11,662 nucleotides of DNA, taken from IMG/VR virus record IMGVR_UViG_2695420859_000009; one strand, written 5' to 3'. The position numbers and the translations under genes were made by a program. Of this stretch, positions 767 to 6,872 are shown in pieces (positions within the stretch are counted from its first letter, which is position 1; each line of letters starts with the position of its first letter). The notes beneath the pieces are model-generated. The model had not been told where the DNA came from, did not search any database, and was given only the letters and a program-made list of their open reading frames with translations. This DNA comes from a virus (taxonomy: Duplodnaviria > Heunggongvirae > Uroviricota > Caudoviricetes).

Positions 767-949
767 GTTGACCTCATTTCCCCTTAACGCCGGGGTAGCG
801 GAACAAAAACCTGCTGCATAGTTATTAAAGTTGAACCCTGCCGTCATGTTCTTACGCCTCGGGCTGGCTACTTAACCCCTGACCACTGCCTGGTAACTCG
901 AAGTATTGCCCTGCATTCTGTGGGGTGGGGTGGGTTGGTATGAAAGGAA

Positions 950-989
950 GGATACCCATGGGTATCCAAAAAGTAAATACCCATGGGTA
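950..989. promoter_or_regulatory. Two operator-like palindromes (GGATACCCATGGGTATCC at 950..967; TACCCATGGGTA at 978..989) overlapping a candidate leftward promoter
   Basis: A perfect 18-bp palindrome and a perfect 12-bp palindrome sharing the core TACCCATGGGTA, centres 25 bp apart. On the minus strand they overlap TTTACT-N17-TATCCT, a weak sigma70-like promoter pointing at the small leftward genes. Confidence 0.45.
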
Positions 990-1031
990 ATTTTTTGATG
1001 TGTCTTAACTGGTGACTGGTTGTTTGGTGAG

Positions 1032-1451
1032 TTATGATGCGTTTTGTGCTTTCTTTTTACGGATTTCTTCGTAGATCATATTGTAATACTGTTTTTTCTC
1101 TTCAAGAGTTTTTAATAAGTTATCCGCTTCACTTTCTGGCAGTTCGTCTAAGAGATCTAAAAAAATACGTTGTCGTGGCGTTAGAACCCTTGTTTCATAA
1201 TTGGAGGCTGTGTTCGTTGATGATGAAACGATACCATCCATCCATCCCCGGGGTAACCCAAAGGACTCTTCTATAATCTCCACCATATCATCAGCGATCC
1301 GTTTTTTTCCTTTTTTCCCCTCTGGGTACAACATTCTTGATACATAAGAAGGCTCGCGACCGATCTTTCTGGCCACGTTAACCGCTTTACCATCGCATTT
1401 CTCATCACGAATTTTGATGAGTTGTTGTCGTCTAAATTCATATTTGTCCAT
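1032..1451 (-). CDS. racR: RacR-like prophage repressor (cI-type immunity repressor)
   Basis: Track ORF 1032..1493 (minus). The product from MDKYEFRRQQLIKIRDEKCDGKAVNVARKIGREPSYVSRMLYPEGKK matches my memory of Rac prophage RacR. ATG at 1451 is preferred; the track start at 1493 is a TTG and would place an operator-like site (1472..1483) inside the coding region. Start is uncertain. Confidence 0.75.
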   Translation of the reverse strand: MDKYEFRRQQLIKIRDEKCDGKAVNVARKIGREPSYVSRMLYPEGKKGKKRIADDMVEIIEESFGLPRGWMDGIVSSSTNTASNYETRVLTPRQRIFLDLLDELPESEADNLLKTLEEKKQYYNMIYEEIRKKKAQNAS

Positions 1452-1471
1452 AGGTAAATAATAGATGCGAT

Positions 1472-1528
1472 TACCGCAAGGTAAACAACCCAAGGGTATT
1501 GACTTTTGTTTACCTGTGGGTATTCTTT
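1472..1528. promoter_or_regulatory. Divergent promoter/operator region between racR and ydaS: three operator-like sites and a rightward -35/-10
   Basis: Sites TACCGCAAGGTA (1472..1483), AACCCAAGGGTA (1487..1498) and TACCTGTGGGTA (1511..1522) share TACC-N4-GGTA with the palindromes at 950..989. A candidate rightward promoter, TTGACT (1499..1504) with TATTCT (1521..1526) 16 bp downstream, overlaps the third site, just upstream of the ydaS SD AAGGAG. Confidence 0.4.
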
Positions 1529-1551
1529 GCTGTGTTTACTAAGGAGTAGCT

Positions 1552-1833
1552 ATGGAAGAATTAAGAATATTTCTCAATTCTCTTTCGTCAGATGAACAGC
1601 GTATGTTTGCATGTGAGTGTGGTACTAGCATCGGTTATCTAAGAAAGGCATTGAGTAAAGGTCAAATGTTAGGGGCATCGTTATGTGTCCTTATTGAGCG
1701 AGCCAGTAATGGTGAAGTTACACGTCAGCAACTAAGGCCTTTTGATTGGATGAATATTTGGCCCGAGCTGGAAGATACCAAAACGTTAACACAACCACTT
1801 ACTAGGAGCTTGATTCATGAAAATCAAGCATGA
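1552..1833 (+). CDS. ydaS: YdaS-like small HTH protein (Cro-like, first gene of the rightward operon)
   Basis: Track ORF with AAGGAG SD upstream of the ATG. It sits divergent from the repressor and upstream of a ydaT-like gene; the sequence matches my memory of Rac YdaS. Confidence 0.75.
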   Translation: MEELRIFLNSLSSDEQRMFACECGTSIGYLRKALSKGQMLGASLCVLIERASNGEVTRQQLRPFDWMNIWPELEDTKTLTQPLTRSLIHENQA

Positions 1834-2242
1834 ACACATCCGCATGGCGATGAATGCCTGGGCGCGTCCTGATGGCGAAAAAGTTCCAGCAGCTGGAATA
1901 ACCCAGGCTTATTTTGAGTTGGGTATGACGTTCCCAGAACTGTATGACGACAGCCATCCGGAAGCCCTGGCTCGCAATACCCAGAAAATTTTCCGCTGGG
2001 TAGAGAAAGACACCCCTGATGCAGTTGAAAAAATTCAGGCGTTGTTACCAGCGATCGAAAAGGCAATGCCACCTTTGCTGGTGGCCAGAATGCGCAGCCA
2101 CAGTTCAGCTTATTTTCGGGAGTTGGTGGAGACGCGGGAGCGACTGGTGAGAGACGCTGATGATTTTGTCGCAGTGGCAATCGCCGGTTTCAATCAGATG
2201 AACCGTGGTGGCCCGGCAGGAAATGCTGTGGCAGTACATTGA
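1817..2242 (+). CDS. ydaT: YdaT-like protein (toxic when derepressed in Rac)
   Basis: Track ORF overlapping the ydaS end by 17 nt, with AGGAG SD. Order and size match the Rac racR-ydaS-ydaT module. Confidence 0.75.
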   Translation: MKIKHEHIRMAMNAWARPDGEKVPAAGITQAYFELGMTFPELYDDSHPEALARNTQKIFRWVEKDTPDAVEKIQALLPAIEKAMPPLLVARMRSHSSAYFRELVETRERLVRDADDFVAVAIAGFNQMNRGGPAGNAVAVH

Positions 2243-2313: not shown

Positions 2314-3384
2314 ATGGCTAACGCCTGGCTCAGATTATGGCATGACATGCCAAATGACCCTAAGTGGCGAACAATTGCCAGGGTGTCAGGGCAGCCAATT
2401 GCAACAGTGATGGCAGTGTATATCCACCTCCTGGTGAGCGCGTCACGAAATGTCACGCGAGGTCACATTGATGTCACGACAGAAGATTTGGCAAGTGCGC
2501 TCGACGTGACAGAAGAGGTAATTGATTCAATTTTGCAGACGATGCAGGGGCGGGTACTTGATGGTGATTTAATCACTGGATGGGAAAAACGCCAGGTGCT
2601 TAAAGAGGACAACGGCAATATTTCGCAAACCGCAAAATCTCCGGCAGAGCGCAAGAGGGCGCAGCGTGAGAGGGAAAGAAAGCGGGAACAAAATGGCGAT
2701 TGTCACGGCGCGTCACGAAATGTCACGCACATGTCACGACGAGTCACGACAGATAAAGATACAGATAGAGATACAGATAAAGAAGATCAAAACACTATGG
2801 TCCATGGCGTAAAAAACGCCACGAACCATGTAGGGGATGTTCAGACCGTCACTCCTGGCCAGCCCGCAGGCACGACACCGGAAGCCGATTCAGCGTATGC
2901 GCTGAAAGCCGATTCGGGCGCTGTGCAGCAGGCGATGACCGCTGGGCCGGAGCAATCACACCAACTGCAGCAGCCTGAAGCCGATTCCGCCATTCAGCGG
3001 GAAGCCGATCGGGTAGTCCCGGAAAACACCGGGCAGCCTGTGGGACGAGTGGATTATCCGGATGTGTTCGAACAGGTCTGGCGGGAATACCCGTTACGAG
3101 CCGGGGCAAACCCGAAGAAATCCGCTTTCAGTGCCTGGAAGGCCAGATTACGCGAGGGGGTGCCACCAGAGGCCATGCTGGATGGTGTAAGGCGTTACAC
3201 AAGATACCTGGCTGCTACCGGGAAAACGGGAACGGAATTTGTTCAGCGAGCGACGACGTTTTTTGGACCGGACCGGAATTTTGAAAACCCCTGGTTGCTC
3301 CCGGTAAGCGGCACGAACAACCAGCGTTGTGTTAATCATATTTCTGAACCGGACACCGAAATTCCGCCGGGATTCAGAGGGTAA
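2314..3384 (+). CDS. Phage replication initiator, lambda O-like (iteron-binding N-terminal part, acidic linker, C-terminal domain)
   Basis: Track ORF 2308..3384; ATG at 2314 with GAGGTGAG SD is preferred over GTG 2308. Two iteron clusters and an AT-rich GATA-repeat tract (encoding DKDTDRDTDKEDQ) lie inside the gene, as for ori-lambda inside gene O. It directly follows the immunity/cro-like operon. Confidence 0.65.
   Translation: MANAWLRLWHDMPNDPKWRTIARVSGQPIATVMAVYIHLLVSASRNVTRGHIDVTTEDLASALDVTEEVIDSILQTMQGRVLDGDLITGWEKRQVLKEDNGNISQTAKSPAERKRAQRERERKREQNGDCHGASRNVTHMSRRVTTDKDTDRDTDKEDQNTMVHGVKNATNHVGDVQTVTPGQPAGTTPEADSAYALKADSGAVQQAMTAGPEQSHQLQQPEADSAIQREADRVVPENTGQPVGRVDYPDVFEQVWREYPLRAGANPKKSAFSAWKARLREGVPPEAMLDGVRRYTRYLAATGKTGTEFVQRATTFFGPDRNFENPWLLPVSGTNNQRCVNHISEPDTEIPPGFRG
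2439..2480. repeat. Iteron cluster 1: GTCACG repeated at about 10-bp spacing
   Basis: GTCACG at 2442, 2452 and 2473 plus GTCACA at 2462. The 21-mer CGCGTCACGAAATGTCACGC is repeated exactly in cluster 2 at 2709..2729. Confidence 0.5.
2701..2800. repeat. Iteron cluster 2 (5 x GTCACG at 10-11 bp spacing) followed by an AT-rich GATA/GATACA repeat tract; candidate origin of replication
   Basis: GTCACG at 2702, 2712, 2722, 2733 and 2743, then AGATAAAGATACAGATAGAGATACAGATAAAGAAGATCAAAACACT (2751..2796). Iterons one helical turn apart beside an AT-rich unwinding element is the classic ori layout. Confidence 0.5.
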
Positions 3385-3421
3385 CAGATTTCAGGTCATG
3401 GGGTAATTTTCAGGAGGGCTT

Positions 3422-3697
3422 GTGGCAAAAGTTTTTACTCCCGAACTGCGGGAAGAAGTGAAGGCGCGCATTGTGGAACTGGTACGCAGAGATGGGCGAA
3501 AAACGCGTAAACAACTGGAAAATGAAACCGGGGCGACGAGACACCTGATAGAAGTTCTGGTGAAAGAGCTGGTAGTTAGTGGCGCAGTATATGGTTCAGG
3601 ACATGGAATATTTCCTTCGGAGCAGGCTCGTAAGGACTGGGGAAAAGCCCGCAAAAAAAATGTCGAGAGCGGCAGTGAAAAAGAAGAGCGACCCTGA
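3422..3697 (+). CDS. Small basic protein (91 aa, possible winged-helix DNA-binding), possibly frameshifted into the next ORF
   Basis: Track ORF; GTG start at 3422 with a strong AGGAGG SD 4 nt upstream. The frame ends shortly after an A8 homopolymer (3653..3660), and the +1 frame stays open for another 56 codons. Confidence 0.4.
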   Translation: MAKVFTPELREEVKARIVELVRRDGRKTRKQLENETGATRHLIEVLVKELVVSGAVYGSGHGIFPSEQARKDWGKARKKNVESGSEKEERP

Positions 3698-4073: not shown

Positions 4074-6872
4074 ATGTGGGGAAGTGAAAACAAACAAAAT
4101 CTGGACGTACTGGATCCTGTGCAGTTGGTGCGTATCGAAGCGGTACACCGGGGGTTCCTTTACCAGCATCTTTACGCTGTAGGCTGCTTACTTTTGGCGC
4201 AGAGGGCAGCTATGGACTCAGTAACTGTCGAGCTTGATGAGGATATTGAGCTGAAATCCAAACAGGAACGTCTCTACATTCAGGTTAAAACCCGTTCAAA
4301 ACCTATTATGCCCAACGATGTGTCGGGGGCTCTGGAGCGATTTGTAAAGCTCAGAAATGAGCATACTTCGGCAAACCGCGAAGGGGTGGCTTCTTTTGTG
4401 ATTATTGTAAACCAGGCGCCTGGACCGCTGCTTCAGAAGATGATTGACGATAAAAAGCTTCCTTCTGATGTTCTTATTGTCTGGCCCCAGTCGACAGCTG
4501 GACGTCACCCGGCACTTCCGCCCGCATGGAGTACTCTGGCTGATGCGGCCACATGGTGTATCGCAGAAGCAGAAAAGCTGAAATTTTCACTATTGTCCCC
4601 AGAATCCTTGATTTGGAAGTTAGCAGGATTGGTTCAGCTTGCCGCCACCGGAGGCGATACCAATGGACAACATACGTTTTTCACGGAAGAACTTACTGAA
4701 CTATTTGAACAGTTGATCGTTCAGCTACAGGACTTTCCTGCACCACCAGCACTGTACCGCCCACAGAACGAAGAACCTTCTCTCACATCTGGTGAGCGGA
4801 TCCGTATCCTTTGTGGACTCTCAGGTGCAGGCAAGACAGCTTGGGCCGCACAGGCCGCATTACACTCCACTGCACTTTGTGCTTATTACGACACCGGTGA
4901 TCTTCCCGGTCCAGCTCTGGCCAGTACGCTGGTGCGCGAGATGGCTGCTAGATTTACAGCCCGTGACCAAGACGGTTTGCGCAGGATTTTGCTCCCCGGT
5001 GCCAGTGGTTTTGAGGCTCTTAGGAGTTTTGATACCTACCTGAAAGAGCAGGGTACCACCTTGGTGCTGGTTCTGGATAACGCCCATCGTGTACCTGCGG
5101 AAAATCTACTGGATGTTCTGAATGCAACTACACATATTCGTTTTGTGCTGTTGTGCCAGCCTCACGAAAACGTTCGCGAACTGGAGGTCATGACGGGGCT
5201 ACAGCGCGAGGGCCTGCAGGGATGGAATCTCGATACGGTAGCTGTCGTTGTAAACGATATCGGAGGATTTGCCACCGCTATGGGATACGAGCAGCTACGG
5301 GCTTACACTGGTGGTCTTCCCCTGTATGTAGAGAGCGCCGCAAAAATCGCCGTTTCTGATTATGAGCGTAATGTCGATGCTCTGTGTGCTGAACTCCAGC
5401 AACAAACCCATACTGCGGAAACCGCCCAAGAAATTATTCTGTCACGTGTATTTCAGGGATTTGAATCACTACTTCAGAGCGCGCTGGCATTGTTCAGTCT
5501 CTCTGACGTAGGGCTGAGTCGCGAAGAGATTTCTACGCTCCTAATCAATTCGCTGAACATTTCACCAAGCAGTGCTGCTTCTTTAATTAGGAAAATGCGC
5601 GCTACTGGCACTATTGAAATTTATGGAAACCAGACCCTGAAGGTACATGATGCTGTCAGGGGGCTAGGACTGCAACATCTGGAACTGATGGATCAGGGTA
5701 TATCGAACAAAGCGCTACTAGCGCTGAAAGACCTTTTAGTTGAAAGTCTTCATAATACCCGCAATACAAAACGGTTATCGTTGTTGACTCAACTTTATAT
5801 TAAGCTCAATGATGTCACGACGTTGATCGAACTCTCAGGCCAAGAAATGTTTTATGAGATGGGCGTGACGGTCGACATTCTTGCAAGCTTGGAGCGTGCT
5901 GCAACATCGGACTTATTGGGACCTGTTCATAAATTCTGGGCATTGGATGGCCTTGTTTTCGTTGAGCTTAAAGACGGAATATCCGACCACATTGCTCAGA
6001 GGTTAAACATCATGGGAGCTTTACTTGCGGAGCACAAGTTCGGCTATCAAGAAGAGATGGCCTATGCAATGAAACGAATGTTATTTTCGGCAGAAAGCAA
6101 TGATGCACGAGAAGTTCAAAAGCTGGCACAGGAAGTCCGCCCCCAACTCCCAGATGAAGAACATAAACGCATCTTTGACTACAACCATGCCATTGCACTC
6201 TGGAGATTAAAAAAACTCAAGGATGCTGAAACATTAAGCTGTAATGTTATACAAGGGTACTATTCTTTATTTGGTATCACACCTGCTGATGTCATAGGAA
6301 AAAACGCCGACGCATTATGGAAAACTATTAATCATTCCGAAAATATGCAGGAACACTTTAAACATATGGCTGATGCTCTGGAGTTGCTGGCCAGAATTCG
6401 TGATGCGCAGGGAAAACTGTCACCATTACTGCGTATTCATTCGATGAAGTTCTACAATCTGGCCATGGCCCCGGAATCCATGGTCAGGGTGGGCCAAGAT
6501 CTGGCGGATGAGTTTGTTGCCATAAAGGATTACGACGGTGCCAAGGAAGTCATGGAGCAACATGTCCTGCCGGTTGTCAATGAGGCAGGTCTAGTACATC
6601 GACTGATTCAGGTTCGAAGCCAATACGCAGTCATATTAGCACTATCGGGTCAGCATAAAGCAGCTGATGTCGAAATGCAGCGCCTTGCTCCCTATATCGA
6701 AGGCCTCACAGGTGTACAGCGTCAAGAAATCCAAAATCAATCAAATTACATCGTACAGCTTGCCCATAAAGCAGCAAAGACTAAATTAACTGAAGTTTTT
6801 GGTGCGGTCGGCCGGAATGAACAATGCCCCTGTGGCTCGGGAATAAAGTACAAAAAATGTCACGGTGCCTGA
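4074..6872 (+). CDS. Large multidomain protein (932 aa): N-terminal PD-(D/E)xK-like nuclease-type region, STAND/NB-ARC-like P-loop NTPase, helical repeat region, C-terminal SEC-C zinc-binding motif; candidate single-gene antiphage (Avs-like) defence protein
   Basis: Track ORF with AGGAA SD. Walker A GLSGAGKT (residues 248-255, nt 4815..4838); Walker B LVLVLDN (D335 at nt 5076..5078); GLPL motif at residues 413-416 as in NB-ARC/STAND NTPases. N-terminal GFLYQ...VELDEDIELKS...IQVK resembles Cap4/Mrr-type nuclease signatures (from memory). Terminal CPCGSGIKYKKCHG (residues 918-931, nt 6825..6866) matches the SEC-C motif. About 450 residues of the C-terminal half are predominantly helical by eye. 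The gene is flanked by AT-rich intergenic DNA. Confidence 0.85.
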   Translation: MWGSENKQNLDVLDPVQLVRIEAVHRGFLYQHLYAVGCLLLAQRAAMDSVTVELDEDIELKSKQERLYIQVKTRSKPIMPNDVSGALERFVKLRNEHTSANREGVASFVIIVNQAPGPLLQKMIDDKKLPSDVLIVWPQSTAGRHPALPPAWSTLADAATWCIAEAEKLKFSLLSPESLIWKLAGLVQLAATGGDTNGQHTFFTEELTELFEQLIVQLQDFPAPPALYRPQNEEPSLTSGERIRILCGLSGAGKTAWAAQAALHSTALCAYYDTGDLPGPALASTLVREMAARFTARDQDGLRRILLPGASGFEALRSFDTYLKEQGTTLVLVLDNAHRVPAENLLDVLNATTHIRFVLLCQPHENVRELEVMTGLQREGLQGWNLDTVAVVVNDIGGFATAMGYEQLRAYTGGLPLYVESAAKIAVSDYERNVDALCAELQQQTHTAETAQEIILSRVFQGFESLLQSALALFSLSDVGLSREEISTLLINSLNISPSSAASLIRKMRATGTIEIYGNQTLKVHDAVRGLGLQHLELMDQGISNKALLALKDLLVESLHNTRNTKRLSLLTQLYIKLNDVTTLIELSGQEMFYEMGVTVDILASLERAATSDLLGPVHKFWALDGLVFVELKDGISDHIAQRLNIMGALLAEHKFGYQEEMAYAMKRMLFSAESNDAREVQKLAQEVRPQLPDEEHKRIFDYNHAIALWRLKKLKDAETLSCNVIQGYYSLFGITPADVIGKNADALWKTINHSENMQEHFKHMADALELLARIRDAQGKLSPLLRIHSMKFYNLAMAPESMVRVGQDLADEFVAIKDYDGAKEVMEQHVLPVVNEAGLVHRLIQVRSQYAVILALSGQHKAADVEMQRLAPYIEGLTGVQRQEIQNQSNYIVQLAHKAAKTKLTEVFGAVGRNEQCPCGSGIKYKKCHGA

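Follow-up and report, generated by a model that had tools for sequence, protein, structure and literature searches.

In phage lambda, dyad-symmetric sites overlie the promoters PR, PRM and PL, with OR2 near position −42 of PRM, and the cI mRNA is leaderless. Here we describe a comparable arrangement in an 11,662-bp stretch of DNA (IMG/VR record IMGVR_UViG_2695420859_000009), the whole of which is referred to in the following as the window. The window is part of a lambdoid prophage of Escherichia coli; a 100% match in strain Z1323HEC0108 adjoins a tRNA-Ser gene and mtfA. It contains a gene for a putative repressor and five palindromes of the form TACC-N4-GGTA, two of them downstream of this gene and three between it and a divergent cro-like gene. 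Most likely, these are the left (OL) and right (OR) operators of a lambdoid-type immunity switch, at which dimers of the 139-aa repressor would bind the consensus t-TACC-YRYR-GGTA-a. We put the probability of this reading, which was reached by sequence analysis, at about 85%. It draws on the excess of the motif, its positions relative to the promoters, its conservation, its co-variation with the DNA-binding domain of the repressor and the predicted fold of that domain. The arrangement is classical, and in mechanism this is a textbook OL/OR system of the ordinary lambdoid type. The novelty lies in the motif, of which no earlier description seems to exist, and in linking it to a repressor domain that is widespread and unnamed.

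The locus resembles that of lambda in the ≈24 bp between the two sites that cover a promoter and in the placement of the OR2 equivalent near −42 of PRM. It differs in having a core of 12–14 bp rather than 17 bp, a spacing of 15 bp rather than 23 bp between OR2 and OR3, only two left sites, and a repressor with no peptidase domain.

Two characterized analogues act in the way proposed here, namely PaaR2 and YdaS in CP-933P (PMC8630535) and DicA, DicC and dicBp in Qin (PMC10448788). In CP-933P, PaaR2 is a CI-like protein with a leaderless mRNA, the divergent ydaS and ydaT genes encode Cro and CII analogues, and OR and OL clusters and a PL are present (PMC8630535). The predicted layout of the window is the same in all of these respects. 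However, PaaR2, which starts MQKKE, differs in sequence from the window repressor, its operator is an 18-bp palindrome with the half-site GTTTAGTAA, unlike that of the window, and the paaA2-parE2 toxin–antitoxin pair is absent behind the window repressor. In Qin, as in the window, the repressor is short and has no RecA cleavage site, a cro-like gene is divergent from the repressor gene, and operators lie in the intergenic region (PMC10448788). A PL-like promoter stands directly in front of ydfA-ydfB-ydfC-dicF-dicB in Qin (PMC10448788), and the leftward genes of the window are of the same type. The repression exerted by DicA is relieved by the antirepressor Rem (PMC10448788). The C-terminal 55 residues of the window repressor weakly resemble the C-terminus of DicA, whereas the DNA-binding domain is unrelated. 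The right arm is of the ydaS/ydaT type in the window and of the dicC type in Qin, and the window has two left sites where three have been reported for Qin.

The Rac prophage of E. coli K-12 has the same gene order as the window, with divergent ydaS-ydaT, and likewise has a downstream pair of sites 25 bp apart and an intergenic cluster. The RacR operator is (T/A)TAGGC-n3-GCCTA(T/A), and racR also has a leaderless promoter (PMC9638921). A preliminary description of the window, made from the sequence alone, had called the repressor RacR-like. This is true of the position of the gene, but homology of the protein was not borne out: BLASTP against K-12 RacR returned E = 2.3, with no detectable similarity, and the repressor was rejected as a RacR homologue. 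No copy of the RacR operator was found near the repressor gene of the window, and the two matches with 2 mismatches found elsewhere compare with 3.4 expected. The likeness to RacR is thus one of position and not of ancestry.

The palindromes and their promoters

All five palindromes listed in the preliminary description are present (Table 1). Four are exact copies of TACC-N4-GGTA, starting at 953, 978, 1472 and 1511, and the one at 1487 has one mismatch. A search for TACCNNNNGGTA gave 4 exact matches in the 11,662 bp against 0.06 expected, and none of 200 dinucleotide-preserving shuffles, which were used to set the chance level for the exact motif, contained 4 or more. When one mismatch was allowed, the site at 1487 and another at 1991, inside the ydaT-like gene, were added. 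The 1991 site was considered as an extra operator and judged to be due to chance, because 2.2 matches are expected at this level. When 24.7 kb of this prophage were scanned in strain Z1323HEC0108, a check proposed in the preliminary description, no exact copies beyond the same four were found. A repeat finder grouped the sites independently, with the left and right clusters as mutually inverted copies.

The first palindrome, GGATACCCATGGGTATCC, was described as an inverted repeat at positions 950–967, downstream of the repressor gene. Its sequence and position were confirmed, but its 18-bp length is not kept in the E. coli relatives. The extension (GGA...TCC) is peculiar to the window variant, and most E. 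coli relatives have AAATACCTATGGGTATCC at this place, showing that only a core of 12–14 bp is conserved.

The sites stand in a defined relation to three candidate promoters. The pair at 953 and 978 is in register with the leftward −35 and −10 elements of a candidate PL, and this two-site register is the same as that at PR. The candidate PL matches the consensus at 8 of 12 positions and was missed by the promoter scan, which had a threshold of 9 of 12; the homologous PL promoters in relatives are stronger (e.g., TTGACA/TATATT). It would drive the leftward operon of DUF1391, ydfB, ydfC and dicB-type genes. On the right-hand side, the third site had been said to overlap a candidate ydaS promoter, and PR, from its −35 at 1499–1504 to its −10 at 1521–1526, does overlap the site starting at 1511. 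The center of OR2 is ≈41.5 bp from the predicted start of PRM, on its upstream side, and OR1 lies ≈24 bp beyond OR2 relative to PRM. The A of the repressor ATG, at position 1451, is the seventh base after the PRM −10 element and no Shine–Dalgarno sequence precedes it, from which a leaderless repressor mRNA is predicted. The same geometry of PRM and ATG is repeated in related loci.

Table 1. Proposed operator sites, candidate promoters and genes of the immunity region, and segments of the window as aligned with Tritos.
Feature	Position	Strand	Description	Basis
OL1	953–964		TACCCATGGGTA; promoter-proximal left operator; covers PL spacer and first two bases of −10	exact motif
OL2	978–989		TACCCATGGGTA; 25 bp from OL1; abuts PL −35 on its upstream side	exact motif
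Candidate PL	949–977	−	−35 TTTACT (977 to 972), 17-nt spacer, −10 TATCCT (954 to 949); predicted start near 942	read by eye
OR3	1472–1483		TACCGCAAGGTA; repressor-proximal; overlaps PRM −35; fixed offset of −32 from repressor ATG	exact motif
OR2	1487–1498		AACCCAAGGGTA; between PRM −35 and PR −35, abuts PR −35; offset −47	one mismatch
OR1	1511–1522		TACCTGTGGGTA; cro-proximal; overlaps PR spacer and start of −10	exact motif
Candidate PRM	1458–1485	−	−35 TTTACC (1485 to 1480), 16-nt spacer, −10 TATTAT (1463 to 1458)	promoter scan
Candidate PR	1499–1526	+	−35 TTGACT (1499–1504), 16-nt spacer, −10 TATTCT (1521–1526)	promoter scan
Proposed operator of the repressor dimer			ATACCCATGGGTAT; residues 34–41 would face TACC	
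Repressor gene	1032–1451	−	139 aa	PHROG 5736 match
Cro-like (YdaS-like) gene	1552–1833	+	93 aa; 19-nt leader with AAGGAG	PHROG 35
YdaT-like (CII-like) gene	1817–2242	+	outside the swapped patches	Pfam YdaT_toxin above threshold; PHROG 163
Tritos: leftward operon and 5′ untranslated region	up to 935		97% identity	
Tritos: left immunity patch (OL/PL)	936–1031		unrelated	
Tritos: repressor C-terminal domain	1032–1148		76% DNA identity	
Tritos: right immunity patch (DNA-binding domain, OR, cro-like gene)	1149–1804		unrelated	
Tritos: ydaT-like gene onward	from 1805		95% identity	

The motif and the DNA-binding domain in other elements

The cI protein of mEp043, a plaque-forming lambdoid phage, has 228 residues, of which the first 72 are 76% identical to the window repressor. 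The remaining C-terminal domain is different and longer; it is a LexA-type S24 domain, which the window repressor lacks, and mEp043 cI is therefore presumably cleavable. The N-terminal domain, with its conserved helix-turn-helix region SYVSRMLYPEGK, is 70–76% identical between the window and phage proteins. In mEp043, the interval from cI to cro contains TACCTGCCGGTA, AACCTATGGGTA and TACCTACAGGTA, spaced by 15 and 25 bp, and TACCTACAGGTA and TACCTATAGGTA lie 25 bp apart in the stretch that separates the cI operon from gene N; both the number of sites and the spacings are those of the window. Its cro-like gene is 73% identical to that of the window. The mEp043 PL drives N, whereas the candidate PL of the window fronts the dicB-type operon. 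Phage CharmingMan has the same site pattern as mEp043.

The repressor domain also occurs in prophages across the Proteobacteria. A scan of one genome per species gave 35 loci, totaling 177 kb, with relatives of the domain at 42–82% identity. The loci include Edwardsiella, Klebsiella, Pantoea, Yersinia and Aeromonas and, at greater distance, Paraburkholderia, Herbaspirillum, Alcaligenes, Nitrosomonas, Stenotrophomonas and one Xanthobacteraceae genome. Relative to the repressor ATG, nearly all of them have three sites, at about −72, −47 and −32. A downstream pair, 25–26 bp apart and 70 to 1875 bp past the repressor stop codon, is present in 29 loci if the window and the two phages are counted in. 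The first site of every pair is directly followed by a −35 element (typically TTGACA), and the −10 element begins at the TA of the second GGTA. Within the 35 loci, 53 exact sites are located no more than 100 bp ahead of the repressor ATG, 20 loci have an exact downstream pair, and the 7 remaining exact sites are halves of pairs with a one-mismatch partner. No exact site was found elsewhere in the 177 kb, compared to 2.7 expected by composition overall.

A frequency matrix of the sites reads t-TACC-YRYR-GGTA-a, with invariant TACC and GGTA and a variable YRYR center. The repressor-proximal site, OR3, has a center that is non-YRYR, and the outer half-site of the middle site, OR2, is degenerate (GGTT, GGTC or GGCC) in 26 of the 30 that were scored. 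In 80 E. coli relatives whose domain is identical, most of the sequence differences are in the four central bases or the spacers. The segment at 880–1560 is found at ≥80% coverage in 822 of 5426 complete E. coli genomes (≈15%).

The most divergent homologue, in an Advenella locus (L036), has the recognition helix PASISHML, and its locus is without the motif; ATACCGC-N8-GCGGTAT, found upstream of the gene at 2440–2475, may represent a drifted specificity. In seven loci from Burkholderiales and other non-enterobacterial hosts (L027, L029–L031, L033, L037 and L038), the ATG of the cro-like gene lies ≈83–85 bp upstream of the repressor ATG and only ≈7 nt after the predicted PR −10 element. Both switch genes may be leaderless in these loci, unlike in the window.

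A natural exchange of the DNA-binding domain was found in phage Tritos, which alternates between closely related and unrelated segments when aligned with the window (Table 1). A good alignment of the two repressors is limited to their last 55 residues. Tritos contains no TACC-N4-GGTA; it has GTACT-N4-GTWC twice downstream of the repressor gene and twice in the divergent region, with the two copies of each pair 24 bp apart, against 0.04 expected. K-12 Rac, in turn, is homologous to the window in the leftward 5′ untranslated region up to 942 and at the start of ydaT, and the six RacR-type operator sites detected in it served as a positive control. Judging from these alignments, the three immunity types of the window, Tritos and Rac share one layout, and the motif changes when the DNA-binding domain of the repressor changes: the same domain in mEp043 and CharmingMan goes with the same motif, while the other domains of Tritos and Rac go with other motifs in the same places. 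The OL patch and the patch comprising the domain, OR and the cro-like gene have been exchanged together, despite the conserved segment for the repressor C-terminus that lies between them. The comparison of the window, Tritos and Rac is thus a clear example of interacting parts being co-transferred in mosaic phage genomes. The OL/OR-like layout that the preliminary description expected for an immunity repressor was supported by every comparative test run.

In K-12 Rac (L002, 2631–2668; about NC_000913.3 1419630–1419667), a pair of TAGGC-N3-GCCTA sites 25 bp apart lies downstream of racR and in front of ydaG/ydaF. It is OL-like and occupies the same place as the pair in the window, with further sites in the racR-ydaS intergenic region. 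The passages of PMC9638921 that were consulted describe intergenic RacR operators only.

The repressor and a model for the switch

The repressor matches PHROG 5736, annotated as "transcriptional regulator", with E = 5e−70. A Pfam search matched no family and revealed no S24 peptidase domain, a sequence search of the PDB gave only chance-level matches (E ≥ 0.07), and PADLOC returned no match. The only match in NCBIfam was to the DicA model (PRK09706), which scored 24.1 bits where the cut-off is 101 and covered residues 84–136 only; with no full-length match above the curated cut-off, membership in the DicA family was rejected. Homologues come in two forms, one of 221–242 aa with PF00717 (S24 peptidase) and one of 125–150 aa without it. 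For the DNA-binding domain itself, neither a Pfam model nor a solved structure exists.

An AlphaFold2 model, built from a 24-sequence alignment, had a mean predicted local distance difference test score (pLDDT) of 85.8. It shows a compact helical N-terminal domain (residues 1–70) with helices at 3–18, 23–30, 34–41 and 54–63, a disordered linker at 77–87 and a C-terminal helical hairpin at 92–138. The N-terminal domain is predicted with high confidence to be an XRE-type helix-turn-helix. When the model was compared with the PDB by Foldseek, the best match was the Rep repressor of Salmonella phage SPC32H (5D50, solved while bound to its antirepressor); XRE-type helix-turn-helix proteins, among them C proteins, HigA and HipB, came next. 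Only the likeness of the domain to 5D50 counts, since the global superposition was poor, with a root mean square deviation above 10 Å. The predicted recognition helix comprises residues 34–41 (PSYVSRML), which are invariant or nearly so in the 24-sequence family alignment, and this fits the invariant half-sites of the operators.

Binding, the order in which the sites are occupied, activation of PRM, the leaderless start and the route of induction are what we infer from these data. Repressor dimers on OL1 and OL2 would occlude PL by bracketing its −35 element and covering the spacer and −10, thereby shutting off the DUF1391-ydfB-ydfC-dicB-type operon. As PL fronts genes of the dicB cell-division inhibitor type, the sites probably decide whether a toxic operon is silent. 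OR1 and OR2 would likewise occlude PR, the candidate promoter of the cro-like, ydaT-like and replication genes. OR2 also appears to be placed to help transcription of the predicted leaderless repressor gene from PRM; such stimulation is plausible because OR2 (≈−41.5) and OR1 (≈24 bp further) match the geometry known for lambda from the literature. At high levels of repressor, OR3, lying on the PRM −35 element, would mediate autorepression and limit repressor synthesis, and the cro-like protein is probably a competitor at the same operators. The YRYR centers of the strong sites and the irregular center of OR3 suggest that affinity may be graded through the deformability of the DNA.

Release from repression is more likely to occur through an antirepressor or through instability of the protein than through RecA-stimulated cleavage, because the repressor lacks an S24 autoprotease domain. 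Self-cleavage is also argued against by the resemblance of the repressor to DicA, which is relieved by Rem (PMC10448788), and to SPC32H Rep. With its site order and promoter register, the consensus t-TACC-YRYR-GGTA-a provides a precise and testable definition of the operator.

Several points weigh against an operator role for the five sites or limit what can be concluded from it. The candidate PL, at 8 of 12 positions, is a weak match to the consensus. The center of OR2 in the window is atypical, with CAAG on the + strand where most E. coli relatives have TGTG (CACA in the orientation of the repressor). Conservation of the TACC of OR3 and of the GGTA ends could partly reflect the −35 and −10 hexamers that they overlap. 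Simultaneous occupancy of OR2 and OR3 is uncertain, since they are only 15 bp apart, center to center, unlike in lambda. The contributions of the repressor and the cro-like protein are not fully separable by comparison, since the cro-like gene is co-inherited in most loci. Finally, a search for the motif string and for the mEp043 operators found no description in the searchable literature.

We also considered, as a tentative extension that we regard as rather less probable than not, that the helix-turn-helix domain, the TACC-YRYR-GGTA operators, the cro-like gene and the leaderless PRM form a single portable immunity cassette. Its specificity would have been frozen from E. coli to Burkholderiales and Xanthomonadales, and it would be joined interchangeably to an S24 autoprotease or to a short helical domain of the DicA/Tritos type, with the left pair in the window perhaps also terminating the repressor transcript. 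If so, one immunity specificity would be common to phages and cryptic prophages from widely differing hosts, while the way in which they are induced would differ.

Alternative explanations and neighboring genes

The left pair (953–989) might instead serve mainly as an intrinsic terminator of the repressor transcript, stopping transcription from PRM 40–80 nt past the stop codon through base pairing between its two identical copies in the RNA, with any operator role being secondary. A terminator scan did list the pair, and the − strand RNA of 930–1035 folds into a 16-bp hairpin that starts 43 nt after the stop codon (−25.4 kcal/mol, z = −4.3), as stable as which none of 200 shuffles was. However, the tail, UCCUUCCUUU, is pyrimidine-rich and is not a run of U. 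In the relatives, the distance of 70 to 1875 bp from the repressor stop codon leaves genes in between, and of six relatives that were folded, some had the hairpin between the sites, but it is missing in others, L012 and L020 for example. The conserved features are the half-sites and the register that they keep with −35 and −10 elements reading away from the repressor gene. A hairpin is, moreover, an expected by-product, as any two near-palindromic copies will pair. We consider a primary terminator role unlikely, although the left pair may additionally terminate the repressor transcript in this window only.

A second alternative accepts the sites as operators but supposes that they are recognized by the cro-like protein alone, the repressor recognizing something else. 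The cro-like protein scores 25.9 bits with the Pfam YdaS model, below the gathering score of 30, and is 39% identical to K-12 YdaS over 44 aa. Of the 35 genome loci, 29 have a homologue of its gene together with the motif, as do both phages (in L022 and L030 the gene was missed by automatic calls of open reading frames and found by tblastn), and YdaS binds intergenic operators in CP-933P (PMC8630535). In contrast, five Klebsiella loci (L007, L010, L011, L013 and L014) retain the repressor domain, OR1, OR3 and the downstream pair, yet no cro-like gene was found in them by tblastn at E ≤ 1, and no open reading frame was present upstream. That these loci keep the sites ties the motif to the repressor domain. 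In addition, no other conserved repeat that the repressor might use was seen in the intergenic region. Recognition by the cro-like protein alone is thus very improbable. Shared use of the sites by both proteins is likely, by analogy, and is the expected case, given that the two proteins share operators in lambda, Qin and CP-933P.

The third alternative, that the palindromes are chance or compositional repeats or relics of restriction sites with no regulatory role, has nothing in its favor other than the NcoI site (CCATGG) in three copies, and we consider it already refuted by the excess of the motif (4 observed against 0.06 expected) and by the conservation of its positions across bacterial classes while the center, and hence CCATGG, varies freely.

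The same Klebsiella loci (≈2400–3480) encode a 233-aa S24-type repressor with the same DNA-binding domain, and their middle site is replaced by TTTGCTATATTTT. They may represent another type of element, or a remnant, with this repressor–operator pair in use.

On the + strand to the right of the sites, the 93-aa cro-like gene is followed by that of the YdaT family, after which come a replication initiator and later genes. With 33% identity between the YdaT-like protein and K-12 YdaT, and the value given above for the cro-like protein, both neighbors of the repressor are only distantly related to the K-12 genes. The sequence at 1810–1827, TTGATTCATGAAAATCAA, spans the start codon of its gene (1817) and exactly matches the published CP-933P YdaT site TTGATT-N6-AATCAA (PMC9986795); this segment is common to K-12 Rac. 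By analogy with CP-933P (PMC8630535), it may mark a PRE-like promoter under the control of YdaT.

To the left of the sites, the DUF1391, ydfB, ydfC and dicB-type genes lie on the − strand. This region of the window contains a 335-bp tandem duplication (228–527 and 563–862, 97% identity), resulting in two copies of a DUF1391 gene (ydfA/ydaF-like; 276–512 and 611–847, − strand), of which there is a single copy in Tritos and in Z1323HEC0108.

Further to the right, between the replication genes and hokD, an open reading frame at 4074–6872 (+ strand) encodes a 932-aa protein with a Cap4-nuclease/LmuA-like N-terminus, AAA ATPase domains and a C-terminal SEC-C motif; it is a candidate anti-phage defense gene carried by the prophage.

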